NCBI GenBank assembly: GCA_038216025.1
Contig: JBBQQK010000003.1
Coordinates: 1 to 33,424, forward strand
Direction: 5' to 3'
Length of the DNA: 33,424 bases
Source: Patescibacteria group bacterium
GTDB lineage: Bacteria; Patescibacteriota; UBA1384; XYA2-FULL-43-10; 1-14-0-10-43-13
Under the pieces are notes generated by a model. That model was given only the letters and a program-made list of their open reading frames with translations, was not told the DNA's origin and made no database searches. Of the stretch, positions 5,666-31,816 are shown piece by piece. Positions within the stretch are counted from its first letter, which is position 1, and the number at the start of each line of letters is the position of its first letter. Position numbers and translations under genes: made by a program.

Positions 5666-5736
5666 TATAATTAAAGAATTCCAATTTTGGAATTTGTTTA
5701 GATTTATGGGCTCTAATATTTATCTAGGGAAAAAAT

Positions 5737-7308: not shown

Positions 7309-7866
7309 ATGGCTAAAAAGATATTACGCAAGCGTTATTTAATTCCCGCAGCAATTTTTGCTATTTTTTTATCATTTTACATTTTATATTTAAAGCCAAA
7401 TCCTGTCTTACGCGTTGATGCAAATAAGATTATCGCCCGAGGCAAAAATACCTCCGCTTTGAATATCATTGCTCCAGAGGAAATTGATGGCGTCGGCAAA
7501 ACTTTTACGGTGCAAATCGAGCTTGATTCTATGGGAACTTTTGTTAACGCTATTCAAAGTTATTTAGAATTTGACCCTCGAGTACTTCAAATTTCAGATG
7601 TTGATACTTCTCAATCGTTTTGTAAATTTTACCCCGAGAATAATTTCAATAACGAAAAGGGTATCGTTAAGTTATCATGCGGCAGTCCATATCCAGGATT
7701 CAGGGGCAAAAACATTGTTCAAAAAATTGATTTTACGACAAAAGCTATTAGGACAACTGAGTTGAAGTTACAAAAAGATAGCATGGTTCTTGCAAATGAT
7801 GGCAAAGGTACAAATTTATTAAAGGAGTTGCCCACGGTTTCTATCAAAGTTAAAGCAGCTTTATGA
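7309..7866 (+). CDS. membrane-anchored cohesin-like domain protein
   Basis: N-terminal TM helix, then GKTFTVQIELDS..VNAIQSYLEFDPRVLQI, a cohesin-like beta-sandwich pattern. AAGGAG RBS. Confidence 0.7.
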   Translation: MAKKILRKRYLIPAAIFAIFLSFYILYLKPNPVLRVDANKIIARGKNTSALNIIAPEEIDGVGKTFTVQIELDSMGTFVNAIQSYLEFDPRVLQISDVDTSQSFCKFYPENNFNNEKGIVKLSCGSPYPGFRGKNIVQKIDFTTKAIRTTELKLQKDSMVLANDGKGTNLLKELPTVSIKVKAAL

Positions 7867-8912
7867 TAAATGTTTTCCAAAAAAAGAATTTTTTCTTATT
7901 CTTCTTTGCTTTATGCCTAGTCAGTATTTGGCTATTTTTACCATATCGGATTTTTGCGAAGGAAGTAGTTCTATCTACTGATGCGGTCAGTGTAGAAGCA
8001 GAGAAAATCATTCAAATCAAGGTCAGTATTAATACCGATGCGGAGAAAGTTAACGCAATTGGTTTTGTAATTGATTTTTCAACAGAAATACTAGAAGGGC
8101 TTACCCCCAATCAGTCTGGTTCTTCCTTCCCTATGTGTGCTACTTTGTCGTCTACAAAATATGAATGCGGGGTTTCAGGACAAAATGGTTTTTCAGGAGG
8201 GGGGCTGGTGACCACTTTGACTTTTAGGGGAAGGACAGCTGGTGCAACCACTATTACCCTCAGGAATTTCAACGCACATATGACAAGAGAGATAAACGGT
8301 TCACCCGTTGTAGAAACAATTTCCGGATTTGAACCGAATCCAATAGAAATTACCGTTCTTGGGTCGGGCACAAAACAACAAAGAGACAATGCTGGCCCTT
8401 TAATACAAGATAGCAGCAATCAATTACCGGCTCCTTCAGCACTTCCTGCCGGGCAAACTGCTGAATCGCCTCAGCCAACAGAACCCGGCCAGTCTTTAGG
8501 GTCTCGCATTCAAGTTCCTGGAAAAATAGGTGCCGGTCCGGAAGAAATTCTAAAACAGGCCGCAACCGAAACACAACAATCTTTAGTTAAAGGACTTTTT
8601 TCTTCGAACAATAAAACCTACTTAAGTTTATTTCCAACCCTTCTTTTGTTAGCTCTAGCTTCTTTCTTAGGCACTAGATTACATTTTTCGGAAAAAAAGC
8701 GTCATATAGAAATTGAACGCCTTTTTGATAAGCAGCTCGGAATGCTTTCTTCCTTAGAGAGCAAAATCGACTTAGTAGAGCAAAAAGGTGGAGGAGGCAA
8801 GGAGAAATTCCTTTCAGAATTTGAAGAAGCTAAAGAAGAAATTATAAATATTGAAAAAGTCGGTGGTAAGCATGAGGACAAAGCTGAGGATAAGGTTGAG
8901 GATAAAGCCTGA
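7863..8912 (+). CDS. exported cohesin-like protein with Pro/Gln linker, C-terminal TM and charged tail
   Basis: Signal peptide, IQIKVSINTDAEKVNAIGFVIDFS...GLVTTLTFRGRTAGATTITL, a P/Q-rich linker, a TM segment (LFPTLLLLALASFLG) and an E/K-rich tail. ATGA overlap with the previous gene. Confidence 0.65.
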   Translation: MINVFQKKNFFLFFFALCLVSIWLFLPYRIFAKEVVLSTDAVSVEAEKIIQIKVSINTDAEKVNAIGFVIDFSTEILEGLTPNQSGSSFPMCATLSSTKYECGVSGQNGFSGGGLVTTLTFRGRTAGATTITLRNFNAHMTREINGSPVVETISGFEPNPIEITVLGSGTKQQRDNAGPLIQDSSNQLPAPSALPAGQTAESPQPTEPGQSLGSRIQVPGKIGAGPEEILKQAATETQQSLVKGLFSSNNKTYLSLFPTLLLLALASFLGTRLHFSEKKRHIEIERLFDKQLGMLSSLESKIDLVEQKGGGGKEKFLSEFEEAKEEIINIEKVGGKHEDKAEDKVEDKA

Positions 8913-8924
8913 TAAGCAGGAGAT

Positions 8925-8954
8925 TTGACAACCATGGCCATTATTGCATATCAT
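8925..8954 (+). promoter_or_regulatory. sigma70-type promoter
   Basis: TTGACA-18 nt-TATCAT upstream of the AAGGAG RBS of 9002. Confidence 0.45.
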
Positions 8955-9001
8955 AATAGTAAGTTTAAGATAACCAAAAATGTTTTCATAAAGGAGAAAC
9001 T

Positions 9002-9937
9002 ATGCTTAAGAGGATAATCGCTGTTTTTGTTGGAGTAATCTCTGTTCTCGCTGTATTAACGTCAATAAATTCAGCAAAGGCTGCTGATCCTGTGGCTGGT
9101 CGGGGTAGTATTACGGTATCACCAATTTCATTCGAGCTCTATGCCAATCCAGGGGATAGCTTGAGCGAAAAGATTAGAGTTAGAAACGATTCTGGTGCAG
9201 ACATGAATTACCAGATATTAATTGAAGACTTCAAAGCGGTCGGCGAAGAAGGAAGCGTTGATACAGTTTTAGATCAATCAAACAGCAGCTTTTCTCTAGC
9301 AAAATGGGTTGTTCCTGAGCCAAAAAATATCTCTATTAAAAATGGCCAAGAAAAAGAAGTTCAATTCTCGATTAATGTTCCCAAAGATGCTGAGCCAGGC
9401 GGCCACTATGCTTCAATTTTGGTTAAAATGGGTGGTGGCGACATTCAAAATGGTGCAGCAGTTGCCTCTAGAGTCGGTTCTTTGATCTTATTGCGGGTTG
9501 CCGGAAACATTAAAGAAGAATCGATGGTTGAGTCTTTCAAAGCCGATAAAGGATATTACCAATCAGGTCCAGTAAATTTTGACTTAAGAGTTAAAAACAA
9601 CGGTAACAATCACGTTCAGCCAAAAGGTACAATTCTCATCACAAATCTTTTTGGTCAAAAAATAGCAGAGATTCCTTTAAACGGAAAAAATGCATTGCCG
9701 GGTGCTATTAGAAGAATGGACACAGAGTGGTCTCCTGGTAAATTTCTTGCTAACCGATATACGGCAACCTTGGTTGCCAACTATGGCCAACAAAGCAAGA
9801 CGCTGTCTGCCAGCACAAGCTTTATTATCTTTCCTAAAGCATTGTTGATCACATCCATATCTATTATTCTTCTTATCGCACTTATGTTCATCTTTAAAAA
9901 GAACATTAAGAATTTTATTCATAAGTTATCTAAATAA
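9002..9937 (+). CDS. DUF916/DUF3324-like (WxL-interacting-protein-like) cell-surface protein
   Basis: Signal peptide, two Ig-like domains (FSINVPKDAEPGGHYASI; VKNNGNNHVQPKG..ITNLFG; ALPGAIR), a C-terminal TM and a basic tail. Paralogous to 25594..26520. Confidence 0.65.
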   Translation: MLKRIIAVFVGVISVLAVLTSINSAKAADPVAGRGSITVSPISFELYANPGDSLSEKIRVRNDSGADMNYQILIEDFKAVGEEGSVDTVLDQSNSSFSLAKWVVPEPKNISIKNGQEKEVQFSINVPKDAEPGGHYASILVKMGGGDIQNGAAVASRVGSLILLRVAGNIKEESMVESFKADKGYYQSGPVNFDLRVKNNGNNHVQPKGTILITNLFGQKIAEIPLNGKNALPGAIRRMDTEWSPGKFLANRYTATLVANYGQQSKTLSASTSFIIFPKALLITSISIILLIALMFIFKKNIKNFIHKLSK

Positions 9938-10042
9938 ACAAATATATGACTTTACAAAAGGTTGCAAAAGCATCCTTTTGTAAATTTATTTGCCGAACTA
10001 TATCTGGATAAACAATCTACCAAGGAGAGGGAGGGTTTTGAA

Positions 10043-11293
10043 TTGAAACTTATTTGTCGGAAAATAACGGCGCTAATCCTTTTGGTAAGCTTGATTTCGT
10101 TTTTTGATATTTCAAGTCATTGCTATGCGGCTGATGCCTTACATGGTGTTACTGATCTGGTGAGCATATATGCTCCTGGAGCAACAGTTAAACACATAAT
10201 TTCTTTTCACTTGCCAGAAGGCACTAACCCGGCCATCGAAACCACCGATTACATCATTGTGGATATGGATCAATACGATGATGTTTCTGCTCCAACCTAC
10301 GTCACGGGACCTTATACTGGAACTCCGGTATATTCGCAAGTTGGAAAAAGGTTGTATATTACAGGCATCGGTTTGCAGCCTGGACAAAATCTCTCAATTT
10401 TGGGCATCATCGCGAAAAGTCCTGATGTGGCTGAAGCGATGTTCTCAAGAATCATAATAGCAACCGATTTCAGCGCGAGTGATATCAAGTATGAACAAGG
10501 TGTCGCAACTGCTAGACAAACCAATAGGGTTACGATGACGGCAGCCAAGCCCGGAGAAGTGGGAACGCTAATTATTTCCGGCCTTACATCCCCCGGTATG
10601 TTTCTGACATTCATTGAGGGGGGCAATATCATTGGCAGCAATCTTGCTTCGGAAGATGGTACTTTTACGAATAGCTTTCCAGGACTTCCGTCCGGAGAGC
10701 ATACCATTGTAATTTATGGTTCCGATCTTGATAATCATATTACTCCCGGTGTATATCTGGAAAATTTATTTATGGTCACTCAAACCACCGTAAGTGTGAG
10801 CAATGTTCTTATCCCTCCTACTATCTCAATTGATAAAGAGGAAATACAGCAAGGCGAAACAATCAATGTGTTAGGTAGAGGAGCTCCAGATCATACTTCA
10901 ATTGTTTTCACGGAACCACCTCTTCAATCCCATGAAGCTTTGACAGACAGTTCTGGAATTTATCAATATTCGATCGAGGATACAATTGATTTTGAATATG
11001 GAGATCATAAGGTTTATGCTCTTCTTCAAAATGAACTGGGAGCTCAAAGCCGCCAAAGTATAATGCTGTTTTTTAGAGTTGGTTCCGCAGGAGATCCGGG
11101 CGATAATGGCGGCGAGCAATGCAGTATTATTCGCGGCAACTTAGACTGTGATGCCGACAATCAAGTCAACCTTACTGATTTCTCAATCTTGCTGTATTAC
11201 TGGGGTAGCGGTTCTGCCTCGTCCGATATCAACGGTGACGGCGTAGTTAACTTAATAGATTTTTCTATCATGATGTTCTATTGGAACGGTTAG
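10043..11293 (+). CDS. secreted Ig-like protein with C-terminal dockerin-like double EF-hand
   Basis: Probable TTG start at 10043 after GGAGAGGGAGGG gives a signal peptide (the ORF track starts at 9962). The C-terminus repeats a Ca-loop/helix unit: GNLDCDADNQVNLTDFSILLYYWG and SDINGDGVVNLIDFSIMMFYWNG. Confidence 0.75.
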   Translation: MKLICRKITALILLVSLISFFDISSHCYAADALHGVTDLVSIYAPGATVKHIISFHLPEGTNPAIETTDYIIVDMDQYDDVSAPTYVTGPYTGTPVYSQVGKRLYITGIGLQPGQNLSILGIIAKSPDVAEAMFSRIIIATDFSASDIKYEQGVATARQTNRVTMTAAKPGEVGTLIISGLTSPGMFLTFIEGGNIIGSNLASEDGTFTNSFPGLPSGEHTIVIYGSDLDNHITPGVYLENLFMVTQTTVSVSNVLIPPTISIDKEEIQQGETINVLGRGAPDHTSIVFTEPPLQSHEALTDSSGIYQYSIEDTIDFEYGDHKVYALLQNELGAQSRQSIMLFFRVGSAGDPGDNGGEQCSIIRGNLDCDADNQVNLTDFSILLYYWGSGSASSDINGDGVVNLIDFSIMMFYWNG

Positions 11294-11360
11294 TAGTCCA
11301 TATCAATGCCTTTTGCTGGAGAGTGTGCCTGATTTGCTTACGATAATAACACTTTGATAA

Positions 11361-13379
<2,019 letters not shown>

Positions 13380-13479
13380 AAGATAGTCCGCCTATATCGC
13401 ATCATAGGAAAATCTAATATAATTACAATATAATCAATATTGAAATAGTGCTCGATATCCAAAACCATGGAGGGAATAG

Positions 13480-13995
13480 GTGCCTTTAGATTTACTAATC
13501 AACGTTTTTATTACCGGACTATGTTTGCTAGGCATGGGACTATATTTTAATCACCGAGAAAAAAAACTCCATTCAGTAGCAGAAAAGCGCTTGTACAGCT
13601 TTAAGGATCAATACCTTCACCACGTAGCCAGAAGAAAGGTTAAAGAAAAGGAAGAGATCGCTAAGTTAAAAGAACTAGCTAGAAAATTGGAAGAAAAACA
13701 TCTTCAGATGATTGTTAGCGAGAAAAAAGTGACAGTCCAAAACAAGGATTATCTGGAGATTGAGGTGGAAAAAGTGATGAAGCAAGCGCAAGAAAAAGCC
13801 CGCCAGATTGAAGAAGAAACTAAAGCCAGCTCTCAGATATTTTTGGAGGAGCAAAAAAAAGAAGTTCAGATGAAGATGGTTGATCTGGTTATGGGCGTGA
13901 CAGAAAAGGTTCTCAACAAAACACTGGCTTACGACGATCATAAAAAAATGATTGAGGAGGCGCTGGCTGATATGGAAGGAGAAGATGGAGAATGA
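13480..13995 (+). CDS. atpF: F-type ATPase subunit b-like
   Basis: A single N-terminal TM and a long charged coiled coil ending VDLVMGVTEKVLNKTLAYDDHKKMIEEAL, a b-subunit C-terminal pattern. GGAGG RBS and operon position agree. Confidence 0.8.
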   Translation: MPLDLLINVFITGLCLLGMGLYFNHREKKLHSVAEKRLYSFKDQYLHHVARRKVKEKEEIAKLKELARKLEEKHLQMIVSEKKVTVQNKDYLEIEVEKVMKQAQEKARQIEEETKASSQIFLEEQKKEVQMKMVDLVMGVTEKVLNKTLAYDDHKKMIEEALADMEGEDGE

Positions 13996-14536
13996 TATTG
14001 GAAAGATTATTGACGATATCATTTTGCTGGTTGACAAAAAAGAACAGCTAGACCAGATCATATTTGATGTTTCAAATATTGGCGATGAGATCGGCTATAA
14101 ATCGGTAGTAGATAAAAACGGTGATGATCCTGCCGAACGCAAGGAGCTGGTAAAAAACGCTGTTTCCAAGATTAAATCAGAGTTAATGAAAGACTATTTT
14201 AACAAATATATCAATGAGAGCAATATATTGATCTTTGAACCAAACCGGTTCAAAAATTTTCAAGATCAGCTGCAAGCAGAGATAAAAAAAATTATCTGTA
14301 TCCGTTTGACCATAGCTGTTGAACTGAAAAAAGAAGATACAAAAAAAATATCAACAAAGTTATCTGAAAAAATGGAACAAAAGGTTCTGATCGATATAAC
14401 TGTGGATAAGTCGATTGTCGGAGGGGCTATAATACATAAAGACAATTATATTTTTGATTTTTCTGTTAAATCAAAGCTGGGCAGACTGGCAGACGAATGG
14501 AAATTGGCAATAGAAGAGGCAAACAGTGATGCTTAG
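13985..14536 (+). CDS. atpH: F-type ATPase subunit delta-like
   Basis: C-terminal delta/OSCP motif LTIAVEL...VDKSIVGGAII...DFSVKSKL. ATG 13985 after GAAGGAG is preferred over 13952. Confidence 0.85.
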   Translation: MENDIGKIIDDIILLVDKKEQLDQIIFDVSNIGDEIGYKSVVDKNGDDPAERKELVKNAVSKIKSELMKDYFNKYINESNILIFEPNRFKNFQDQLQAEIKKIICIRLTIAVELKKEDTKKISTKLSEKMEQKVLIDITVDKSIVGGAIIHKDNYIFDFSVKSKLGRLADEWKLAIEEANSDA

Positions 14537-16502
14537 AAGTATCGAAGACTACCTAGAAGACGCCGATATGAAGCCGGCAAAAAAAAGCAGAGCCGCCAAG
14601 AAAGACAAAGAAAAGCGCAGCGATGCTCATTTTTTAGTTGCAAAGAGTTCAAAAAAAATAAGTAGGAAGCTAAATCCGAAAGAAAACATCGAAAAACAAT
14701 ATGCTGAACTGATAAAAGCAAAAAAATTGGAAGCGGTTGAAAAAAAAGTTGCTACTGAAACTTTATCCGAGGAAAAGAAATCTCCAGAACCGGTCAGCCG
14801 CAAAGGTAAACTCTTTACCGATCTTCTCGGCACAATTGACGAAAAAGTTGTCAAAACAGTAAAGAGAACCGGAAAAGCCAATCTCACAATGACCGAGACA
14901 ATGGTCAAAGCTATGCCTGACTCGAAATCCGCCCCATCTATTCTAGAAGTCGGCGAAGTTGTCTATATCGGTGATGGTATCTGTAAAATTTCCGGTCTGA
15001 CTAATGCTAGGATTGACGATGTTCTTCGGATTAAAACCGATGGCGAGGATGTTTTAGTTTTGGTTTTGGGCATTACCGGAGATATGGTAGAAACAGTTGT
15101 GCTTGGTGATTATTTTACTGTCAAAAAAGGAAATATGGTTTTTTCAACACAAAAAACATTGAAGATTCCAGCCGGACCAGGAATATTGGGGCGAGTGCTT
15201 TCGCCGATTGGAAGGCCGATAGACGGTAAAGGTCCGCTTGATATTTCCAAACAGATGAATGTGGAGCGGCCGGCACCGGCAGTTTATATGAGAACGCCGA
15301 TTGTAGATCAGCTTAGAACCGGTTTTATAGTGATTGATTCCATTATTCCAGTGGGCAGAGGGCAAAGAGAGTTGGTAACTGGCGACAGAAAGACCGGCAA
15401 ATCTCGTTTGATGGCTGATGTAATCTGCAATGTTACGAATAGGGATATTTATTGTATTTATGTTGCGATTGGCGGTCAAAAGGCTAAGATAAAAGAGATG
15501 GCGATGTATCTGGATAAATATGGAGCATTGAAAAATACTACAATCGTTTTGGCTAGCTCAGATGATCCGCCCTCTCTCAATTATTTGGCTCCGTATGCCG
15601 GATCAGCTATTGCAGAATATTTTTGCGATTTGGGCAAAGACGCTCTCATTATTTACGATGATCTTTCAAAACACGCCAAAGCTTATCGTCAAATGTCACT
15701 GTTACTAAAAAGGTCCCCTGGAAGAGATGCTTATCCTGGGGATATCTTCTACCTTCATTCCCGTTTGCTGGAACGAAGCGCTAAAGTAGCCGATGAATTT
15801 GGTGGCGGATCGATCACCGCTCTTCCAATATGCGAAACACAAAACGGGGATATTTCCGAGTATATCACCACTAATTTGATGTCGATTACCGATGGGCATA
15901 TGTATCTTGATAGTCAGATGATGCATGATGGTATCTTTCCGGCTGTAAACTCAAGCTCATCCGTATCTCGTATCGGCGGCAGTATCCAAGCTAAACTTTT
16001 GCGAAAGTTCGGCGCGATTGCCGGTTCGCAATTGGCTCGGTACAATGATGTAAAATCATACGAAACGATGAACACGGAGATTACCGAAGAAACCGAGCGG
16101 GAGATCAATCGCGGTAAAAGAATATTAGAAATATTCAATCAACCTTCTGGGCTGAATTTTGACGCGCCGGAAGAGACAATTCTATTGTATATTGTGACCG
16201 AAGGATATCTCGACTATATTCCGATCGATGTGGTGGCAATATTAAAAGTTGAAATCATTACCTATTATCATGATAATATGAAGTCGTTTACAATATTGAC
16301 GGATCAATCGATGAGTAAAGACGCGGACGACAAGGATATGTCTCATCTCGAAGAATTTATGAAACAATACTTTAATACCGGCAGTGATCCGGCCAAGGCA
16401 CTCAAAGAAGCATACGAGAAAAAACTGGAAAAAGCAGCCGCCGCTGAGGCGGAAAAGGTAGCCGTGGCCGACGAATCCGCCGACAAAAAGGAGAAGAAAT
16501 AA
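14526..16502 (+). CDS. atpA: F1 ATPase alpha subunit with long N- and C-terminal charged extensions
   Basis: IPVGRGQREL.TGDRKTGKS (Walker A), YDDLSKHA.AYRQMSLLLKRSPGRDAYPGDIFYLHSRLLER, SITDG and SVSRIGG (arginine finger). Confidence 0.95.
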   Translation: MMLRSIEDYLEDADMKPAKKSRAAKKDKEKRSDAHFLVAKSSKKISRKLNPKENIEKQYAELIKAKKLEAVEKKVATETLSEEKKSPEPVSRKGKLFTDLLGTIDEKVVKTVKRTGKANLTMTETMVKAMPDSKSAPSILEVGEVVYIGDGICKISGLTNARIDDVLRIKTDGEDVLVLVLGITGDMVETVVLGDYFTVKKGNMVFSTQKTLKIPAGPGILGRVLSPIGRPIDGKGPLDISKQMNVERPAPAVYMRTPIVDQLRTGFIVIDSIIPVGRGQRELVTGDRKTGKSRLMADVICNVTNRDIYCIYVAIGGQKAKIKEMAMYLDKYGALKNTTIVLASSDDPPSLNYLAPYAGSAIAEYFCDLGKDALIIYDDLSKHAKAYRQMSLLLKRSPGRDAYPGDIFYLHSRLLERSAKVADEFGGGSITALPICETQNGDISEYITTNLMSITDGHMYLDSQMMHDGIFPAVNSSSSVSRIGGSIQAKLLRKFGAIAGSQLARYNDVKSYETMNTEITEETEREINRGKRILEIFNQPSGLNFDAPEETILLYIVTEGYLDYIPIDVVAILKVEIITYYHDNMKSFTILTDQSMSKDADDKDMSHLEEFMKQYFNTGSDPAKALKEAYEKKLEKAAAAEAEKVAVADESADKKEKK

Positions 16503-16505
16503 TAT

Positions 16506-17390
16506 ATGGCTATAAATGAAATAAAAGAAAAAATAGGAGTGGTAAAATCGGTAGGCGGTTTTGCTAACGCTCTTCAACAGATCGCTTCGATGCGAATGAT
16601 TTCTTTGCGTGAAAAAGTAATGGCCAGCAAAAGGTTTGTTGATGAAGCAACTGAAATATTGCGCGAGCTGAATTTGCACAAAGAGCTAAATCTTGACCGG
16701 GAGCTTGAGCGGGCAGACAAAAAAGGATTCAAAAAGTCTAAGAAAGAGAATGAAGGAAAGCCAAAAATGGTGGCCAACCAAGCTCTCATTATTATCACTT
16801 CAAATCAAGGATTATGCGGCAAATTCAATGCTGAAATATTTAAGCCCCTAGAGAATAAAATATTTTCCGAAAATGAAAATTCGGATATATTTATTGTCGG
16901 CAAAAAAGGACAGGAGCATTATCTAACTAGTAAAAAGTATAAATTGAAATTTTATCCATATGCTCTTCCTGACAATTTTACTTCAGATGATCTGCTGCGG
17001 TTGGTCAGCATGTTTCCTTATTATGAAAAAATCACTATGGTATATTCACGCTTTATAAATACTATCACCCGAGATGTGATGGAAACCATGTTGATCAGTC
17101 CTCCCACAGGCAAGCCGGAAAACACCGAAGAGGCGATCAGGTTTATTTTCGAGCCTTCAGTCGAGGAGTTAATCGCCGAAGTACAAGCAAAATTGAGGGC
17201 GGGGACTTTTCAGCAGCAGATATTGGATTCCCGTTTGGCTCAATTTTCAGCTCAGATGGTTGGTATGCAAGCTGCGTCTGAAAACTCCAAGGTGCTGTTG
17301 AACGATCTAAGTCACGAATATAACAAGCAGAGAAGAAAATTGATTGATAAAAAGATATCGGAAGTTCTGGCTGGAAAAGCATTGTGGTAA
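16506..17390 (+). CDS. atpG: F1 ATPase gamma subunit (divergent)
   Basis: ITSNQGLCGKFN, IVGKKG, FIFEPS and MVGMQAASEN...LSHEYNKQR; lies between alpha and beta. Confidence 0.92.
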   Translation: MAINEIKEKIGVVKSVGGFANALQQIASMRMISLREKVMASKRFVDEATEILRELNLHKELNLDRELERADKKGFKKSKKENEGKPKMVANQALIIITSNQGLCGKFNAEIFKPLENKIFSENENSDIFIVGKKGQEHYLTSKKYKLKFYPYALPDNFTSDDLLRLVSMFPYYEKITMVYSRFINTITRDVMETMLISPPTGKPENTEEAIRFIFEPSVEELIAEVQAKLRAGTFQQQILDSRLAQFSAQMVGMQAASENSKVLLNDLSHEYNKQRRKLIDKKISEVLAGKALW

Positions 17391-17401
17391 GCGAAGGATG
17401 A

Positions 17402-19098
<1,697 letters not shown>

Positions 19099-19188
19099 AA
19101 TAGTAGTAAATTACTAAGGATCTGCCTGAGAAATTACGATTTTTCTATTTGTTTGTTTGATGGCTGTGCTCCCTGCGGATAACTTTTA

Positions 19189-19217
19189 TTGACAGCATGC
19201 AACAATGAATTTATTAT
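19189..19217 (+). promoter_or_regulatory. near-consensus sigma70 promoter
   Basis: TTGACA (19189-19194), 17 nt spacer, TATTAT (19212-19217). Confidence 0.7.
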
Positions 19218-19339
19218 ATAAACAGACATCTTTTTGTCTATCTATGGGTTAATTGTTTGAATGGAGGTGGAAGGGAAATTCAATCGCGTAGTTGTTTATC
19301 AATCGTTTATTAACAAAGTAATTAATTTTGGAGGGAATA

Positions 19340-20551
19340 ATGACAAAAGGTCTACACAAAACCATAGTCTCATTGACAGTCTTTGCAATGACTTTTATGT
19401 ATCTGTTAGTTCCGGCACAAGCTGCCATGCTTTATTCGGCAAGCGTAACGCTAAGTAATCCGGCAGCCAGTGGTTCTGGTACCCACGCTTTCTCAATGAA
19501 AGTAAAAACGCCTGCTACAATTAAGGGTATTAAGCTGCAGTATTTGAAAGCTCCTTCCGGTTCATCCCAGAACCCGACAAGTCTTTCATATGCCGGCGCA
19601 CCGGCCAACGCTACTAGTCTGACCGGTCTTACCGGCAACTGGGCGGTTGATAAGACCACTGACGCCGCAACAGACATTTACTATCTTTCTAAGGCGGCCG
19701 GAGATGCTCTTATCGAAGATGTGACAATCGCCTTCTCAATCACCGGTGTTGGAAACCCGCCCATCTCCGATGGTAATACCGGTTGTACAACTCAAACAGG
19801 GGACGTCAACGACACGACCGGCACCTGTTTTATAAAAATATCTACATGGGACACGGATACTATCGCCACCATGCAAGATGAAACAACCAACGCTGCCAAT
19901 ATCAAAGACTCTACTACTGTTTCATTCGTTGTTACCACTTTGGTCACTATGACCGCAACGGTTGACTCGAGTATGTCTTTCATAGTAGCAGGAGTGGCTG
20001 CCGGTCAAGCAGGCGCCAATGACGCCGGTCTTGTCACATCTACCACTGACCCGTCGACTTATTCCACCTTGCCTTTCGGCAACCTAACGGTTGGTACACC
20101 ACAGCTTATGGCTCACAAATTATATGTTAAGACAAATGCCCAAAATGGCTATACGGTCAAGCTTAGATCGACAACGGATGATACAGGCGCTGCTGCAGAT
20201 GCTAACGGTATCTTGAAGGGCCAGTATGCGGGCAATAACATTGACGGCTTTTCATCAGCTTTTGGTGCTCCCGGTGTTTGGGCTTCACCTACCAATGAAG
20301 AGGCCAATGTTAACTCTGGTTTTCTTGGAGTCAACTCTAATGATACCGGTACTATTTTCAACGGAGATGCCGCTCTGAAATGGGCCGCTATGGAGAACGA
20401 TACATGGAATACCGTTATGACAAAAGGCGGTCCTGACCTTGGCGCTGAAGCTGATGCTCACATAGTTTCTTACGCAATCGAGGTAAACGTTTACCAGCCT
20501 GCAGATACATATACCGGTACTTTCCAGTATCAGGCAACTCCTACTTACTAA
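19340..20551 (+). CDS. secreted Thr/Ala/Gly-rich beta-protein with a WxL-like C-terminal domain; candidate major surface protein
   Basis: ATG 19340 after GGAGGG, signal peptide ending AQA, and C-terminal motifs LPFGNL, VKTNAQNGYTV and QPADTYTGTFQYQATPTY. It has its own promoter and terminator. Confidence 0.6.
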   Translation: MTKGLHKTIVSLTVFAMTFMYLLVPAQAAMLYSASVTLSNPAASGSGTHAFSMKVKTPATIKGIKLQYLKAPSGSSQNPTSLSYAGAPANATSLTGLTGNWAVDKTTDAATDIYYLSKAAGDALIEDVTIAFSITGVGNPPISDGNTGCTTQTGDVNDTTGTCFIKISTWDTDTIATMQDETTNAANIKDSTTVSFVVTTLVTMTATVDSSMSFIVAGVAAGQAGANDAGLVTSTTDPSTYSTLPFGNLTVGTPQLMAHKLYVKTNAQNGYTVKLRSTTDDTGAAADANGILKGQYAGNNIDGFSSAFGAPGVWASPTNEEANVNSGFLGVNSNDTGTIFNGDAALKWAAMENDTWNTVMTKGGPDLGAEADAHIVSYAIEVNVYQPADTYTGTFQYQATPTY

Positions 20552-20577
20552 AGAACCTTTAGTTCGATAGTTCGTAT

Positions 20578-20615
20578 AATTTAAAACCCCACGCATATGC
20601 GTGGGGTTTTAAATT
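20578..20615. terminator. bidirectional intrinsic terminator
   Basis: Perfect 38-bp palindrome AATTTAAAACCCCACGCATATGCGTGGGGTTTTAAATT. Confidence 0.85.
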
Positions 20616-20675
20616 TACATCTCAGTTAGTCTGTTGACCTATACTCTGTACCGTTTGGTTTGGTATAATCAGAAT

Positions 20676-21749
20676 ATGCTCAAAATCGCAAAAAAATTGA
20701 TTATTTTTATACTAATATTCGGCTTTTTATTTGTCCCAAAACCTACGAAGGCCAATGCTATTACTGATTTATCAGTCAGTTTGGGAAACGGTTTGCCTAT
20801 TACTGACGACGTTCACACTCTATCCTTTAGTCTGGCAACTACGTGGGCTTTGAAAAAAATCAATGTACGATATCATAAGAAAGATGGAGACATGAACAAG
20901 CCATCGCATTTGAGCCTCAATAACTCGATCGCCGGCGCTATTACCGGTCTTGGCGGCACTTGGTCGGTTGATTTTACCGGCGCAGCGAGCGGACTTGTTG
21001 TCTTGCAAAATAGCGAAGAAGTACCGACCGAATTGACTGCTGATACCTCTATTTCTTTTTTTATGAATAACGTAACCAATCCGGAACTAGGTGATTGCTC
21101 TATGACTACTATGAAAGACACATGTATGGTCACCATAGAGACTGTCGATAGTATAGAAAATACAATCGACGTTGGATCAGATACTTATGATATTTCAGAA
21201 GATCCCTCTCTTTCTTTTATAGTTTACGGTGTGGAGTCAGGGACTACTACAAATGGTATCGTTACCAGCATCTCCACGGAATTCGATAGAATAAATTTTG
21301 GGAATCTTGCGATAATCGAGCCAAAATTTGGAGCGCAAAAAATGAGAGTAGAGAGTAACTCTCCCAACGGATATGAGGTAAAAATGAAACTTGACGGTTA
21401 TATCGAGGCACTCAATCCAACCTATAAAATAGATCCGTTTGGACCCTATGATGTGACCTGGAATGATCCGGGCGTGTGGCAATCGCCATTCGGCTCCTGT
21501 GACGAAGTAAGCTGTTCTGATACCGGCTGGATAGGGGCCAATACATCTGATACTAGAATCGGTGGCAGTTGGGCAAACGCTTCTGGCAAATTTGGACCGG
21601 TTAGCTCAACTTCTCATCTCGTAATGAGTTCAGCCGGAAGAGATATCGGCACAGATGTTTATGTCACTTACGGTTTAGAAGTCAACGAAAACCAACCTCC
21701 GGATAATTATGCCGGAACTCTTATTTACGATATACTTGCCAGATACTAA
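20676..21749 (+). CDS. secreted WxL-like surface protein, paralogue of 19340..20551
   Basis: Signal peptide from ATG 20676 and shared motifs (DTCMVTIET, INFGNL, VESNSPNGYEV, PGVWQSP, QPPDNYAGTLIYDILARY). TGGTATAAT ends 6 nt upstream of the ATG. Confidence 0.6.
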   Translation: MLKIAKKLIIFILIFGFLFVPKPTKANAITDLSVSLGNGLPITDDVHTLSFSLATTWALKKINVRYHKKDGDMNKPSHLSLNNSIAGAITGLGGTWSVDFTGAASGLVVLQNSEEVPTELTADTSISFFMNNVTNPELGDCSMTTMKDTCMVTIETVDSIENTIDVGSDTYDISEDPSLSFIVYGVESGTTTNGIVTSISTEFDRINFGNLAIIEPKFGAQKMRVESNSPNGYEVKMKLDGYIEALNPTYKIDPFGPYDVTWNDPGVWQSPFGSCDEVSCSDTGWIGANTSDTRIGGSWANASGKFGPVSSTSHLVMSSAGRDIGTDVYVTYGLEVNENQPPDNYAGTLIYDILARY

Positions 21750-21787
21750 TATTCAAAATAGAAAATTTAATTTGCGTTTGGGTCAGC

Positions 21788-23524
21788 CTATCTAATGATA
21801 ATGTTTTGGCCCAATTGGCTGCTCTCTGTAATACTTGAAAAGTTGCCAAGGGACGTCGTTATGTAAGATTCAGCAGACATTAATTTTATTGATGCTGTGC
21901 CTTTTTCGCTGGCTGTTGCCGAAATAACTCCTAATTCTTTTGGGCTATTTATAGAAGAGTTCGTTTGTAGTTCGCAGCCAACTGTGAAAGATTTTTTATC
22001 AATTACTTTCTGAGCTACTTTATTGCAGGCAGCTGAAGGAACAAAATCCTGTATCTCTAATGAGCTGTCGGTATAATCAACTTTAAACATGACGAGACTT
22101 GATTCAATTCCTTTTGAATCAGCGTATAATTTAATGTTTATTTTGTCGCCGGTACTATAATAGCGATCATCTAAAAGAATGTATAAATTGGGCTCGCCTT
22201 TGGCATCTTCTATTTTTGGTTCAATTTGAGGAGATGTATGAGCATAGTCAAACTGACTTGCTGTTACAAATGAGATCAACAAGCATAAGGGGATAATAGG
22301 AAAAAGGAAAAGTGAATTCTTCATTTTAGGTATTAAATTAACCGGCTCAATATTTAGAATTGAACTCCTCATAAGTAGAAAATAAATATAGGCAAGAGAC
22401 ATAAGAAATGTTAGCGAAGTAAGGATAATTAATGAGGGAAAAAAGGCTTTGTTTTCATTAATGATCAAAAAATCTAATATTGTTAGATTTTCAGGGTTAT
22501 TGATTTTATAAAACTTGAATGCATAGCTGTTCTTTTCATATGTAATAAAACCAAAATCATTCGATTTTCCTTCAATATGATCAAAATTATTATTTGACAC
22601 GATGCCCTTAGCTACAAGGTTTCCATTCGATTGGTATCGGCTGCTTCCTTTTGTGATTAGCCCAAAGCTGGTTGGTATGTCGGCCAATAAATTATCATTG
22701 ATGAATTTGCCCGCGTAAACAGCGCCTATCGGACCATATTCTTTGTTGATGGCCTTCCCTGAAAATATGTAAGGATTCTTTTCGTTTGCGGCCGAGATTG
22801 AAGAGTATTCGCCATTGCTTATTGCTTTGCCTGCTTCAGGTATTTCTTTGAAATAATCCGTGCCAATTTTATCCTTGTCGTGGGTGCTGACGATAACCGT
22901 TCCTGTTTTATCAGTAATAACAAAATAAGATAATTTATAGGCAACCATAATGTTTTCAGAATATTTTGAAAGTTTTTCGTACTCTCCATTGGCTAGGTAA
23001 TCTTTGATTGAATCATCAGAGCTAAAAATATCTGCCTTAGTTCTAATGAACTCTTTCTCTTGATTAATTTTATCTTGAAAAGTGGCGGCATCTTTATCGT
23101 ATGATTTTATCAAATTGGCAGTGTAAAGATTTTGAATAAAGATAAACGCCAAGGGGATAATTAATATTATCAAAGCGCCATATAATGTTTTTGATCTGAT
23201 TGATTTGTTGTATCCACTTTTGTCTTGATGCCCAATGAAAAATAATCCGGTAAAAATCATACCCAGTAGAATCATTAGCCACACTTGTGTATTAAAATAA
23301 AAATAGATCACTCCTAAGGCTATTAAAATAAGATACTTGAGGATAAAAATACGCCAGTGCGGCTTGCTCTTCAAGCGAAGAAAAAACAATATACTAACAC
23401 TGGTATAGAACAGCAAAATAGCGGGAATGATTATCAGAAAATAATCGTAGAAGAGTGGTTTAAAAAGAATGAAAAGAACTAATTCGATTGGGTAATAGAA
23501 TATGTGATGGGCAAGATTTTTCAT
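21788..23524 (-). CDS. multi-TM membrane protein with a Cache-like extracytoplasmic domain and a C-terminal cohesin-like domain
   Basis: Several N-terminal TMs, a Cache-like segment (YFVITDKTGTVIVSTHDKDKIG...PIGAVYAG), two more TMs, then TGDKINIKLYADS...KVDYTDSSLEI...GTASIKL. Confidence 0.55.
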   Translation of the reverse strand: MKNLAHHIFYYPIELVLFILFKPLFYDYFLIIIPAILLFYTSVSILFFLRLKSKPHWRIFILKYLILIALGVIYFYFNTQVWLMILLGMIFTGLFFIGHQDKSGYNKSIRSKTLYGALIILIIPLAFIFIQNLYTANLIKSYDKDAATFQDKINQEKEFIRTKADIFSSDDSIKDYLANGEYEKLSKYSENIMVAYKLSYFVITDKTGTVIVSTHDKDKIGTDYFKEIPEAGKAISNGEYSSISAANEKNPYIFSGKAINKEYGPIGAVYAGKFINDNLLADIPTSFGLITKGSSRYQSNGNLVAKGIVSNNNFDHIEGKSNDFGFITYEKNSYAFKFYKINNPENLTILDFLIINENKAFFPSLIILTSLTFLMSLAYIYFLLMRSSILNIEPVNLIPKMKNSLFLFPIIPLCLLISFVTASQFDYAHTSPQIEPKIEDAKGEPNLYILLDDRYYSTGDKINIKLYADSKGIESSLVMFKVDYTDSSLEIQDFVPSAACNKVAQKVIDKKSFTVGCELQTNSSINSPKELGVISATASEKGTASIKLMSAESYITTSLGNFSSITESSQLGQNIIIR

Positions 23525-23526
23525 GG

Positions 23527-25482
23527 TTAGATAAATTCAAAACTATCGATCATTTTTTCCAGTCTTTTTTGATCGTCTGTATTATTGTCATCAATAGTTT
23601 TAAACCATAGCTCAAGAATGAAGCCGTTTGATTGAATAAGATAGGTTGTGCCCATAATCGGGATATTCTCGTCTGGTGTCAATTTTACAGCAATTTTCCC
23701 TTTCCATTCGGTGGCTTCAACCTTGTAAGTAATCTGAGGCTTTAAGTTGCTTACATATTGTTCTAAGCTGGTTTCGGTAATAATTTTCTGCGCTTTGAAC
23801 AAATACCCGTCTTTTCTTATGATCCATATATTATTGCTGCCGACTTGCTGAAGTTTATTGCTGGTATTCTTGGGATAAGTGAAAGAGATTCCTAAGTCGC
23901 TAGCTGTATACATGTCCCATATTGTATTTTCAAATGGAAGATCTGCATAGGCTTCCTTATATCTTTCTTCGGGCGGTTTGCTCATAAGATCGTATGCTTT
24001 AGAGTCGCTGCTACCGCTGTTTTCAATTGCTATATTTCTATTCTGTCTCGCTTGAGAAACATAAGCTTCTCTTAATTGGCCTGCGTTTTTGATTTGATAC
24101 GTAAAATAGGCAGAAACAAATATCAGCAACACTACTGCCGCTTTAACAGCAGTTTTGCCAAGTCCGCCGATTTTTTCTTTATCGTTTTTTTCCTCAATTT
24201 TTATTTGTTTTTGTTTTTTTCCATCGGCTTGCGCCGGGGCTGGTTTTTGTACTGGAGCTTCGGGCTCAGTCTCTTTTGGCGTTTCCTTCTCACCGTTCTT
24301 TTGCTCTATAGTGTTAACCGTGGTATCGGATGTTGATTTTAAATTTTCTTTTTTTTGCTTTTTATTACCCATAGGGAATAGTCCTAAAAACTTCTTAGGT
24401 TTTTTTCCGGGGTAGGGGTCGTTCCCATTCCACTCAATTTTTACAGCCGGAGCAGCTGCAGTCTGAGCGATATTGTTGTTGGGCATGAAGCCGTTTTCTA
24501 GAGCTTCAAGTTCCATTTTTATTTTTTCATATTCATTGAGCTCGGCATCAACCTCATTTTTTACAGCTGCATTTTCGGCTGTAGTTTCAGGCTTTTGTTC
24601 TAGTTGAGTAGGCTGTTCTTCTGTTTTTATCTCTTCTTCTGGTGCTTCTTCAACTTTTGCGACTTCTTCTTTTGCCTCGGGTGTTTCCGCTTTTTTTTCT
24701 TCATTCTTTTCTTCTTCTTTTTCTGGTTGACCAGCGGCAGGTTCATCTTTAGTTTCTGCGGTCGTTTTATCTACGGGCTTGCTCTCGGTGGTTTCTTCTT
24801 TGGTTGCGATAGCGGCAGGAGCTTCTTCTATTTTCTCGGAAACTTTTTCTCCAGCGGAATTTTTAATCGAATCTTCAATTTCTGCTGCTCTGTGAGCTTC
24901 TAAAACAGCTTCTTCCGGACTCTTGTTTTCTGGTTCTTCTGTTTCTTTTTCTTCCTTCTCTGGCGTTTTATCAATTTCGATATTTTTTTCTAATTCGACT
25001 ACTTCTTCTAACTTGTGGACATCTTTGCTCTTTTTTTCAACTTCTTTAACTAAATGTGATTTTCTTTCAATTTTAGACTCTGCTTCTTCGAGAATTTTGA
25101 GTGAATCAGCTACCTTGGACTGTAGCTGAGATGAAGAAAAAATCAAATCATCTTTAAGGGAAGCGATTATGTGCTTTAGGGAGTTGATTTCATAGTGATA
25201 ATTTTTGAGGTCTGCCTTGAGAATAAGATTTTCTTCTTTTAACTTTTCGGCATTAATGCGCTCTTTGTCTTCATTTGTCTTGGCTAGATTCTTTTTTCTT
25301 TCCTTTTCAAGTTTTTCCTTTAAATTTTGCAAATCCAAAAGAGTGCCCTGCGCCTTTTTGAGTTGATTTTCAATGCTTGCTATTTGGCCATCGACTTTAT
25401 CGTCAAAATCAACCTCATGTGATAGAGCAATATTGCCGGAATCACTTCCGGCTATTTTTCCCTCTGCTTTTTCTTCGTTCAT
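23527..25482 (-). CDS. single-pass membrane protein with coiled coil, long acidic low-complexity region and C-terminal PsbP-like domain
   Basis: N-terminal heptad-rich region, an E/K/A/P/T-rich stretch, a TM (AAVVLLIFVSAYFTY), then WDMYTASDLGISFTYPKN...KMIDSFEFI. Confidence 0.55.
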   Translation of the reverse strand: MNEEKAEGKIAGSDSGNIALSHEVDFDDKVDGQIASIENQLKKAQGTLLDLQNLKEKLEKERKKNLAKTNEDKERINAEKLKEENLILKADLKNYHYEINSLKHIIASLKDDLIFSSSQLQSKVADSLKILEEAESKIERKSHLVKEVEKKSKDVHKLEEVVELEKNIEIDKTPEKEEKETEEPENKSPEEAVLEAHRAAEIEDSIKNSAGEKVSEKIEEAPAAIATKEETTESKPVDKTTAETKDEPAAGQPEKEEEKNEEKKAETPEAKEEVAKVEEAPEEEIKTEEQPTQLEQKPETTAENAAVKNEVDAELNEYEKIKMELEALENGFMPNNNIAQTAAAPAVKIEWNGNDPYPGKKPKKFLGLFPMGNKKQKKENLKSTSDTTVNTIEQKNGEKETPKETEPEAPVQKPAPAQADGKKQKQIKIEEKNDKEKIGGLGKTAVKAAVVLLIFVSAYFTYQIKNAGQLREAYVSQARQNRNIAIENSGSSDSKAYDLMSKPPEERYKEAYADLPFENTIWDMYTASDLGISFTYPKNTSNKLQQVGSNNIWIIRKDGYLFKAQKIITETSLEQYVSNLKPQITYKVEATEWKGKIAVKLTPDENIPIMGTTYLIQSNGFILELWFKTIDDNNTDDQKRLEKMIDSFEFI

Positions 25483-25593
25483 TATATTTATTTTACACCA
25501 TTAGGAGTCTCGGATGCAAAGGGATTTCACTCAAAAATCTGTGGAAAAAAGATCATTTGCTCAAAGCAATTCTTGTAAGTATACTTGATACAT

Positions 25594-26520
25594 ATGAAAA
25601 AAATCGCTCAATTATTTATAATTCTTTTTAGCTTTTTATTTGTCGCAATCACTCCTGTTTTAAATAAAGTTAAATCTCAAGACGTGGAGTCCGCTAGCGA
25701 TTATCTGACGGTTACCCCGCCAAAAGTTGAACTTTGGACAGAGCAGGGCAAAGAGATTCATCAGACACTCAAAATAACCAACGAGTCCGACCAGCCAGCT
25801 TTGATAGCCCTAAGTCTTGAAAGCTTTAGTGTCGCCGAATCGGATGGAACGGTGGTTTTAGGGCAAAATTTTTCATTGCCTAATGATATTATTTCATGGA
25901 TAGAATTTGAAAAAAGGGATGCTCATCTAGCGCCAAAAGAGACAAAATATATTAGTTATAATATAAAAACACCGGCCAATGCTTATCCTGGTGGTAACTA
26001 CGCTGCCATCATCGTCTCGATGGATAAAGTCGACAGAAAACCTGAAGATAAGGCAGGGACAGCCAAGGTTGTATCTTTGGTTTTATTGAGCGTGGCGGGA
26101 GACATACGTGATACTGTGGCGGTAGAAAAGTATGAGCACATTACAAGCAAGGCAAAGGGTAATACCAATCACAACTTTGTTCTAAAACTAAAAAACAACG
26201 GCAATAACCATATTCGGCCGAAAGGCATGATCGTGATAACTAATTTCTTTGGAAAAAAAGTGGCAGAGGTTCCTCTTGAAAGCGAAAATGTCTTGCCTAA
26301 TGTTTCTAGAACTTTAGAAACTACCTGGTCACCCAAAGGATTCCATTTTGGTAGATATAATGCGAACCTCGTTGCAACTTATGGGTATAAAGGAGACAAA
26401 CAAATTGCAGAATCAATAGGTTTCTTTATTTGGCCTAATTTGATTACCATCGTGTCTATTATATTGGCTCTTTTTATTGTGGCGATGTTAGCGCTAACCT
26501 TTAAGTCGAAGAGGCGATAG
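25594..26520 (+). CDS. second DUF916/DUF3324-like (WxL-interacting-protein-like) surface protein
   Basis: Visible similarity to 9002..9937 (TPANAYPGGNYAAI; LKNNGNNHIRPKGMIVITNFFGKKVAEVPL; RYNANLVATYG), with signal/TM segments at both ends. Confidence 0.65.
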   Translation: MKKIAQLFIILFSFLFVAITPVLNKVKSQDVESASDYLTVTPPKVELWTEQGKEIHQTLKITNESDQPALIALSLESFSVAESDGTVVLGQNFSLPNDIISWIEFEKRDAHLAPKETKYISYNIKTPANAYPGGNYAAIIVSMDKVDRKPEDKAGTAKVVSLVLLSVAGDIRDTVAVEKYEHITSKAKGNTNHNFVLKLKNNGNNHIRPKGMIVITNFFGKKVAEVPLESENVLPNVSRTLETTWSPKGFHFGRYNANLVATYGYKGDKQIAESIGFFIWPNLITIVSIILALFIVAMLALTFKSKRR

Positions 26521-31814: not shown

Positions 31815-31816
31815 AT

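Follow-up and report, generated by a model that had tools for sequence, protein, structure and literature searches.

The stretch of DNA analysed here ('the window'; 33,424 nucleotides (nt)) is contig C3 of a patescibacterial genome (G000) of 1.06 Mb in 108 contigs, and it carries, at positions 7309-26520, a group of 18 genes that comprises a seven-gene F-type ATPase operon and 11 other genes. Thirteen of the 18 lie on the plus strand (7309-21749), several overlapping and none separated by a gap of more than 229 nt, in the order coh1, coh2, DUF916a, a dockerin protein, the ATPase operon, WxL1 and WxL2; beyond WxL2 come two minus-strand genes (for a dCache protein and for a protein here termed CC) and then DUF916b, again on the plus strand. 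The operon itself (11391-19098, plus strand) reads c-b-delta-alpha-gamma-beta-epsilon, as assigned by Pfam and, for b, by a family profile. Pfam matches above cut-off were obtained for Cohesin (in coh1), Dockerin_1, dCache_3 and every part of the ATPase but b. All 11 non-ATPase genes encode an N-terminal hydrophobic segment and/or a transmembrane (TM) anchor, as called by a Kyte-Doolittle hydropathy scan and not by a dedicated signal-peptide predictor. The inventory of genes given in the original prediction for this locus was borne out by Pfam, family profiles, orthologues and hydropathy, and its statement that every non-ATPase product is exported or membrane-anchored held in the hydropathy scan.

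The ATPase of the window is a second copy, encoded beside a normal ATP synthase of the same genome. The canonical atp operon lies on contig C10, includes subunit a (PF00119, E 4.9e-47) and encodes a c subunit of 75 residues that carries the usual Glu. Identity between the two copies falls from 51% (beta) and 48% (alpha) to 38% (c hairpin), 26% (gamma) and 23% (epsilon), and the b and delta proteins of the window gave no BLAST match to their canonical counterparts. The delta (OSCP) subunit (13952-14536, plus strand; Pfam OSCP, E 7.4e-16), alpha (14526-16502, plus; ATP-synt_ab, E 3.5e-73), gamma (16506-17390, plus; ATP-synt, E 3.8e-43), beta (17405-18799, plus; ATP-synt_ab, E 3.6e-70) and epsilon (18781-19098, plus; ATP-synt_DE_N, E 1.6e-15) were all assigned directly. 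The b-like stalk protein (13480-13995, plus), which consists of one N-terminal TM helix and a charged helix, matched no Pfam family as a single sequence; its family profile found subunit b of Bacillus PS3, a solved structure (E 2.1e-7), in a co-linear alignment of 136 residues (30-165 against 26-161), and 10 of 16 members of the family gave weak matches to FliH.

The catalytic core of this second enzyme appears to be sound. The Walker A and catalytic-Glu (GER.REG) motifs of F1 are present in all 23 orthologues of the second beta subunit (beta2), and the corresponding Arg-finger motif in all 26 orthologues of the second alpha subunit (alpha2; 539-798 residues). Within the locus, conservation is highest for beta, whose orthologues are 64-83% identical to the window protein. 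Alpha has a variable, Lys-rich extension at its N-terminus (about 120 residues) and a charged C-terminal tail, and epsilon is reduced to its beta-sandwich domain (105 residues against 138 in the canonical copy), with the inhibitory C-terminal helices gone. The second ATPase can therefore bind ATP and probably hydrolyses it. A decaying pseudo-operon was rejected as an explanation, since the reading frames have stayed whole and are conserved in over 20 genomes.

The first gene of the operon, BigC (11391-13379, plus strand; 662 residues; Pfam Big_1 and ATP-synt_C), encodes a c subunit of unusual construction, in which a signal peptide and five predicted immunoglobulin (Ig)-like domains precede a C-terminal F-type c-subunit hairpin. 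An AlphaFold2 (AF2) model (predicted local distance difference test (pLDDT) 83.9) displays the signal helix, five beta-sandwich domains and two helices (590-623 and 627-659), with a disordered Gly/Ser/Asp linker at 333-378. A search for such fusions across 5.8 billion proteins, limited to lengths of 364-1159 residues, recovered 47 fused c proteins of 382-818 residues. The cytoplasmic GRNP loop is kept in all 47, with no acidic residue following it in helix 2 of any of these hairpins; the position of the canonical Glu is occupied by Leu (31), Ile (9), Val (5) or Phe (2). All 18 BigC orthologues of the mapped loci share this pattern, GRNP being kept and the carboxylate replaced. The termini of c subunits face outward in bacteria, an orientation with which the signal peptide and the modelled topology of BigC agree. 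The Ig-like arms would thus stand outside the membrane, about 560 residues of each c subunit being outward-facing in the predicted topology, and a ring would bear some 10 or more five-domain arms.

Subunit a is missing as well. Matches to PF00119 in the genome are confined to the canonical operon on C10, and the subunit is absent from every mapped second-ATPase locus; among five other carriers it is single-copy and distant from the second operon in four, and was not found in one (94% complete). With neither a subunit a nor a carboxylate in the c-ring, ions could not be moved and only ATP hydrolysis would be left to the enzyme, so that the second ATPase, judged by its sequence, is unable to carry protons or other ions.

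The genes on either side of the operon include candidates for a surface fibre and its chaperones. DUF916a (9002-9937, plus strand), with a signal segment and a C-terminal TM helix (280-298), and the membrane-anchored DUF916b (25585-26520, plus) are 32% identical to each other and score 24.6 and 24.7 bits against WxLIP_PGBD (PF06030), 2.6-2.7 bits below its curated cut-off of 27.3. The assignment is firmer for the family, in which 17 of 17 members match PF06030 at E<=0.01 (best 9.8e-10), and whose profile finds the solved WxL-interacting protein EfmWxLIP1 of Enterococcus faecium (E 2.3e-5). WxL1 (19328-20551, plus) is an exported two-domain protein, modelled by AF2 as two beta-sandwich domains (pLDDT 76.5), and WxL2 (20634-21749, plus) is its paralogue (31% identity), with orthologues of 358-793 residues in related loci. 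An N-terminal strand with the consensus A-x-V-T-L-S is conserved in these WxL-like proteins.

The label 'WxL-like', which the original prediction had attached to these two proteins, found no backing in sequence searches and some, of an indirect kind, in predicted structure. None of 15 family members, WxL1 included, matched a Pfam family; the WxL family PF13731 in particular matched none of the 15 at E<=1 and, across the genome, no protein at E<=10, and the WxL-like profile matched no solved chain at E<=10. On the other side, the nearest named atlas clusters of the WxL-like proteins are WxL clusters (0.78 and 0.77; a lead only), and the structural matches of the WxL1 C-terminal domain among the top 50 are to donor-strand pilus subunits only, namely those of the TLP-1a/b fibrils from a pond (Z 8.7; 141-146 residues aligned) and a chain of the CFA/I chaperone-tip adhesin complex (6k73_D; Z 6.3). 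Foldseek on the WxL1 model was uninformative, returning generic two-Ig adhesins and integrin legs only (TM score about 0.2). Identity with pond fibril TLP-1 was considered and dropped, the closest protein being attributed to Flavobacteriales.

The third line of indirect support comes from a model of the complex between DUF916a (residues 28-276) and WxL1 (33-407), which gave ipSAE values of 0.80, 0.80 and 0.82 (best control 0.00), a mark that 58 of 80 solved complexes and 2 of 110 mismatched pairs attained. At least 88% of the contacts agree between runs, and the partners have a pLDDT of at least 80. In the model, DUF916a 148-161 pairs in parallel with the C-terminal strand of WxL1 (394-407), and DUF916a 32-43 pairs antiparallel with WxL1 214-222. 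In the enterococcal Elr system, WxL proteins polymerise by donor-strand exchange with the aid of the DUF916/DUF3324 membrane protein ElrE, whose strand 141-152 extends parallel to the strand at the subunit's C-terminus (passages drawn on here from 10.64898/2026.10.17.759780; the csc-type Elr/WxL system is also treated in portions of PMC10599100). The analogy that had been drawn between these genes and DUF916/WxL partners was a good one, as the predicted complex reproduces the donor-strand geometry of ElrE and ElrD. DUF916a is thus a candidate donor-strand chaperone, and WxL1 a candidate fibre subunit or adhesin with a C-terminal domain predicted to act as strand acceptor; the pair would work in the manner of Elr, with subunits that are not filed as WxL-domain proteins. 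Chaperone and subunit genes lie within 10 kb of each other, the distance used in the portion of 10.64898/2026.10.17.759780 that was available, in the window, on contig C42 of the same genome and in each of five ATPase-free loci described below. The C42 pair (locus L107, 4726-9095) consists of a third DUF916-like gene (315 residues, PF06030 26.7 bits) that adjoins a distant WxL-like paralogue (361 residues) and a 724-residue Ig-like protein, with U32 and M50 peptidase genes alongside and no ATPase nearby.

The remaining surface genes encode a putative cohesin-dockerin set. The coh1 protein (7309-7866, plus strand; 185 residues, TM 10-28) matches Cohesin (E 2.1e-8, 34.9 bits against a cut-off of 24.1), and orthologues are present in linked loci. 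The start of coh2 (7863-8912, plus) overlaps the stop of coh1 by 4 nt; its product has a divergent cohesin-like ectodomain, a Pro/Gln-rich linker, a TM helix (252-270) and a charged tail of about 80 residues, likely to be cytoplasmic by hydropathy. Cohesin is matched by two of six members of the coh2 family (24.5 and 17.3 bits) and not by the coh2 of the window. The dockerin protein (9962-11293, plus; Dockerin_1, E 7.3e-7, 29.7 bits against a cut-off of 22.9) is exported and Ig-like, with a type I dockerin at its C-terminus. On the minus strand, the dCache_3 protein (21788-23524; E 4e-9) has six hydrophobic segments and an extracellular dCache domain, followed by a C-terminal domain that is homologous, by hhalign (probability 97.1, E 7.3e-11), to the coh1 family; two genes that adjoin each other encode the Cache part and the cohesin-like part in one group of relatives (clade B, below) and in candidate division CPR2. 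The kinship of the cohesin-like domains escapes pairwise BLAST of the window's own sequences (coh1 against coh2, E 0.96; coh1 against the Cache C-terminus, E 8.5) and becomes visible only through profiles and orthologues. The match between the Cache C-terminus and coh1 shows that cohesin-like domains stand on both flanks of the ATPase operon, as the original prediction had stated.

The last of these proteins, CC (23527-25482, minus strand), is single-pass, with 35% charged residues, an acidic N-terminal region of about 437 residues that is probably cytoplasmic by hydropathy, a TM helix (438-456) and a conserved outer domain of 195 residues, which is 38-44% identical in orthologues. Pfam returned no match for CC as a whole or for this outer domain, for the Cache C-terminus of the window or for a conserved 257-residue gene of clade B. 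The nearest atlas clusters of the CC outer domain (23530-24114, minus) are the gliding motility lipoprotein GldD (0.94) and PsbP-like proteins (0.92-0.93), which serve as a lead only.

With the second gamma subunit (gamma2) as the marker, the second ATPase was found to be rare. It occurs in 15 of the 162 genomes of the class, G000 included, distributed over G000's own family (1 of 22 others), family f2 (4 of 8), f13 (8 of 11) and f41 (one genome), and in 6 of a phylum-wide sample of 401 genomes; of these six, two belong to another class (61 and 68% identity) and one, at 31%, is a distant variant. Among genomes that represent species, a scan yielded 26 loci (gamma2 identity 44-73%), labelled candidate division CPR2, Candidatus Berkelbacteria or Patescibacteria group, some of these labels being loose. 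Against 1.84 billion representatives clustered at 50% identity, gamma2 found three full-length clusters, one weaker full-length protein (184 bits) and three fragments above the level of ordinary gammas, a small number that again marks the family as rare. A distant variant of the operon without subunit a, in which gamma is 27-31% identical, was seen on contig C112 of genome G207 (locus L072), in the order 507-residue protein with a c-like end, delta, alpha, gamma, a 690-residue beta and epsilon, with no b-like gene recognised.

The surface genes are co-distributed with it in the class. Given as counts, and not as a statistical test, a WxL-like match (E<=1e-30) is present in 15 of 15 gamma2-positive and 4 of 147 gamma2-negative genomes of the class, a match to the dockerin protein (E<=1e-10) in 15 of 15 and 12 of 147, and a match to coh1 (E<=1e-10) in 15 of 15 and 17 of 147. 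Three of the gamma2-negative exceptions are genomes of carrier families that are 75-84% complete, and the remaining gamma2-negative matches are weaker and clustered.

Physical linkage was judged on 21 loci with enough flanking sequence, on each of which the window proteins were mapped. A WxL-like gene is found in 18 of them, 15 times as the gene that directly follows epsilon and three times close by, and a DUF916-like gene in 11 within the DNA available, two more being cut by contig ends. The beta2 subunits form a monophyletic group (99/98), set on a long stem from canonical beta, and its four clades match the types of gene order. Clade A, to which the window, CPR2 and two further families of G000's class belong, has the bracketed order described above. 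In clade B (f13) all genes lie on one strand, as BigC-b-delta-alpha-gamma-beta-epsilon-WxL(1-2)-x-DUF916-dockerin-coh1-coh2-CC-Cache-cohesin. In one CPR2 genome coh1-coh2 has moved to the far end, and two clade C genomes have split the operon into gamma-beta-epsilon-WxL and BigC-b-delta-alpha-WxL, with a WxL-like gene on each half. The linkage between ATPase and surface genes has survived several rearrangements and is more than chance. Neighbourhood conservation and phylogenetic profiles, both proposed alongside the original prediction as ways of examining it, agree in finding the two sets of genes linked and co-distributed in related genomes, as opposed to unlinked and scattered.

Individual loci depart from these types in small ways. 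Two tandem genes of the Beta-lactamase2 family (260 and 262 residues) lie between WxL1 and WxL2 in a CPR2 locus (L076, 15053-17024); genes for a HAD phosphatase (L081, 9513-10145) and a histidine phosphatase (L089, 11056-11601) lie between gamma and beta; and L082 (12892-13902) encodes an exported protein on the reverse strand, between beta and epsilon. In genome G038 (L039/L074) delta and alpha, and in G265 (L070-L071/L097) BigC and beta, are split into two or three frames, through either assembly errors or decay of the system there.

The claim that the locus forms 'one ~19 kb system' stands for linkage and co-distribution, and falls for indivisibility. A surface cassette without an ATPase is present in all five loci examined from gamma2-negative genomes (L109-L113, from G062, G069, G148, G080 and G097), in the order giant protein, DUF916, WxL-like, DUF916, dockerin, coh1, long cohesin protein. 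The giant protein measures 1,925-2,233 residues in three of the five, and one of the giant proteins has a C-terminus that matches the WxL-like profile; frames of 1,246-3,845 residues encode further very large proteins that carry a WxL-like module. Conversely, the ATPases of clades C and D have other or unrelated neighbours. Those of clade C include multi-pass membrane proteins, three exported proteins with LVIVD repeats and, in two loci, a PMT_2 glycosyltransferase placed between gamma and beta (L083, 3906-6188, 760 residues; L098, 3388-5868, 826 residues), an insertion that hints at glycosylation of surface parts. The locus is made up of two separable modules, an autonomous surface cassette and an ATPase that has been added to it in some lineages, and since the cassette stands without the ATPase, its assembly and export do not need it.

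What the ATPase might contribute to the cassette can be framed as follows. The first module would be a fibre cassette, in which exported, two-domain WxL-like subunits are held by membrane-anchored DUF916-like chaperones, the donor strand of the chaperone being inserted parallel to the strand at the subunit's C-terminus in the style of an Elr/WxL pilus, with the dockerin-bearing Ig protein and three cohesin-like proteins completing the set. The second would be an F1Fo-derived ATPase made up of alpha3beta3, gamma, delta, b, the shortened epsilon and a c subunit whose loop touches gamma and epsilon. Hydrolysis of ATP in F1 would rotate gamma-epsilon together with a 'proton-blind' c-ring; the crown of Ig-like arms would thereby move relative to the b/delta stalk; and torque or stepping would be carried across the membrane to the fibre and the cohesin-dockerin complex. 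Useful work by the ring requires a stator, as b keeps its TM helix and subunit a is gone: coh2, CC (both with predicted charged cytoplasmic portions) or proteins with wall-binding parts would be candidate anchors in place of subunit a, and the DUF916 proteins and the Cache-cohesin protein would be further ones. That ATP hydrolysis turns a proton-blind c-ring which acts mechanically on the fibre or cohesin-dockerin complex is the account that we favour, with a confidence slightly above even; rotation, fibre coupling, the identity of the stator and a role in attachment or in surface movement are all parts of it that we infer. The original prediction had likewise proposed a structure energised by the ATPase, a membrane protein that replaces subunit a as partner of b, and host attachment, three proposals that stand as hypotheses. 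In such an arrangement the second ATPase may act as a motor that delivers the power of ATP to the cell surface.

A number of observations weigh against this account. Both modules are predicted from genes, and a contact between BigC and any surface protein is an assumption of the account. No subunit a is present to hold b against the ring, and rotation might do no work. The cassette occurs by itself in all five of the ATPase-free loci, clades C and D keep other company, and no WxL-like gene was found in three of the 21 informative loci (L086, L088 and L093). The co-distribution counts overstate the association, because related genomes are not independent. On the side of the fibre, Pfam WxL is silent and the assignment draws on models; the fold matches of the WxL1 C-terminal domain are middling even at their best; and since a related complex may already be solved (EfmWxLIP1, entry 9i25), the passing complex model speaks for likeness to a known pair and not for binding.

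The alternative that survives best, which we nonetheless regard as rather unlikely, is an assembly or anchoring platform, in which the fused c-ring would mainly be a membrane base for the Ig-like arms and F1 a switch or an assembly/release factor that works by limited changes of conformation and not as a motor in continuous operation; the ring might even close the fibre as its membrane-bound terminal subunit, rather as ElrB and a sortase anchor the Elr pilus. The ATPase-free cassettes lend it some weight, as their giant protein and extra DUF916 gene take the position that the ATPase operon occupies in clade B, and this shared position suggests the exchange of a 'base or tip' component; nor was a stator partner identified. 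A precedent of a sort exists in the type 3 F1-like X0 ATPase of Mycoplasma, which is needed for MIB-MIP by a mechanism left unexplained in the passages drawn on here (PMC12994834). What a platform would struggle to account for is the strong conservation of the full rotary set (gamma, epsilon, delta, b and the c loop), which is hard to explain unless the transmission of torque matters.

A bolder form of the favoured account would make the whole locus a rotary surface organelle, in which F1 spins a proton-blind c-ring whose five-Ig arms serve a donor-strand-exchange fibre as a turning base, and the cohesin/dockerin and charged-tail membrane proteins form a wall-anchored stator in place of subunit a. 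We consider this form improbable. If true, it would describe an ATP-driven rotating or winding appendage with which ultra-small bacteria of the candidate phyla radiation (CPR) could travel over a host, draw it in or drill at it, and a third kind of prokaryotic rotary surface organelle.

To be doubted to the same degree is the view that the two modules are uncoupled neighbours, the ATPase having a job of its own (for example, as an ATP-consuming device tied to the BigC arms) and the cassette being merely syntenic with it, because descent is shared and envelope genes tend in general to cluster. Each module does occur apart from the other; glycogen genes lie near the operon in clades A and C, so that some of the synteny is plainly non-functional; and the promoter and terminator scans of the window did not rise above shuffled sequence (58 sites against 48.5 +/- 7.1, and 24 against 16.6 +/- 3.8, respectively). 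Mere synteny is nevertheless difficult to reconcile with a linkage that has outlasted at least three kinds of rearrangement, with the presence of a WxL-like gene on each half of the split operons and with the WxL-like co-distribution; moreover gamma2 is more similar between the window and CPR2, of another class (61-68% identity), than between the window and f13, of the same class (47-54%). An ion-translocating synthase or pump that borrows the canonical subunit a in trans or uses another ion path, for which the completeness of F1 and stalk and the presence of that subunit in the genome might be cited, is close to refuted, and very improbable indeed, given helices without an acidic residue in all 47 fused c proteins, mapped loci that all lack subunit a and a bulky outward domain on every c subunit.

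The favoured mechanical account can be set beside several known systems. Like a canonical F1Fo synthase, the second ATPase keeps the gene order c-b-delta-alpha-gamma-beta-epsilon, intact F1 motifs and the GRNP loop of c; unlike it, the enzyme has lost subunit a, replaced the carboxylate by Leu, Ile, Val or Phe, fused c to other domains, shortened epsilon and extended alpha. N-ATPases have an order of their own that starts with beta-epsilon, and carry atpQ/atpR and a subunit a. The move of beta-epsilon to the start of the operon is described for them in the consulted part of 10.64898/2026.10.01.756066. Assignment to the N-ATPases was rejected because the order differs and subunit a is absent.

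Closer parallels are found among the F1-like X0 ATPases of mycoplasmas. As far as the passages used here go, these comprise alpha-, beta-, gamma- and epsilon-like genes and a 12-TM protein, without delta, b or c; the type 3 form is linked to MIB-MIP and required for it, and one protein of its cluster combines a signal peptide and outer domains with a C-terminal pair of TM helices (all from PMC12994834), and the type 2 form belongs to the gliding motor of Mycoplasma mobile (excerpts of PMC8406192, 10.1101/2024.06.11.597861 and PMC3369863). The similarities are those of a second F1-derived ATPase that stands beside a genuine F1Fo in a genome-reduced host and is tied to surface proteins, and the architecture of BigC resembles the type 3 protein with a signal peptide and two TM helices, a likeness drawn from its description only (the same excerpts of PMC12994834). 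Here, by contrast, delta, b and a recognisable c hairpin are kept, the 12-TM protein is absent and the surface genes are different ones. Furthermore, beta2 is closer to solved beta chains of ordinary F1 (500-546 bits) than to the G1 beta of Mycoplasma mobile (342 bits), which points to an independent derivation.

The fibre cassette shares with Elr a membrane-anchored DUF916-type protein beside exported subunits, a predicted parallel chaperone strand and, in the ATPase-free cassettes, large proteins with a WxL-like C-terminal module. It differs in subunits that lack Pfam WxL and have an extra N-terminal Ig-like domain, in a patescibacterial host, and in the addition of cohesin and dockerin proteins plus, in some clades, an ATPase. 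The Elr/WxL pathway was seen only in Bacillota, in a screen of 4,698 genera, according to the passages of 10.64898/2026.10.17.759780 that were available. As in a cellulosome, one type I dockerin protein is combined with three cohesin-like domains, of which two or three are membrane-anchored; unlike a cellulosome, the set belongs to an ultra-small bacterium, is known here from genes and has its dockerin on a protein other than a carbohydrate-active enzyme. The FliH-FliI-FliJ ATPase of flagella and type III systems and the archaellum motor likewise place relatives of F1, or other ATPases, under a surface filament. The difference is that the present system keeps a hetero-hexameric F1 and a c-ring, and that an export gate and a secretion-type ATPase are absent.

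To our knowledge, rotary ATPases, the mycoplasma cases apart, serve as ion-coupled energy converters. The present operon would add a new use, in which ion coupling has been lost (by sequence), the parts of rotor and stator remain under selection and the ring bears large outer arms, and it raises the question of what such a c-ring turns. It may also represent a bridge in architecture between F1Fo and the mycoplasma F1-like X0 ATPases, and a distant form of the WxL/DUF916 fibre pathway in Patescibacteria would widen the range of that pathway beyond Bacillota. Little of the attachment biology of CPR bacteria is known to us beyond type IV pili, and the locus offers a candidate envelope machine for them. 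In searches of the literature on CPR/Patescibacteria, covering their ATP synthases and F1-like ATPases, c-rings with Ig-like domains, pili and cohesin-dockerin systems, no description of this system was found; unusual neighbourhoods of CPR beta homologues are examined in 10.64898/2026.10.01.756066, the consulted passages of which do not include this one and the supplementary figures of which may hold one.

The DNA on both sides of the locus is of a more ordinary kind. Downstream (26501-33094) lie four glycogen genes (GlgP, GH13, GT5 and GH57). Glycogen genes also flank the other clade A loci, and GH57 and GT5 lie just 5' of BigC in clade C (L085, L086, L088 and L091); they form a second recurrent neighbourhood of second-ATPase loci. 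Upstream (1-6855) lie a VTT-domain fragment and genes for a P-type cation ATPase, dnaG and rpoD. Between rpoD and coh1, an 84-residue frame (6979-7233) that matches no family and has an odd, Cys/Arg-rich composition is probably not a gene, and a promoter-like site (7206-7234) lies inside it. An rpoD fragment is also close to the second-ATPase locus of genome G161 (L065).

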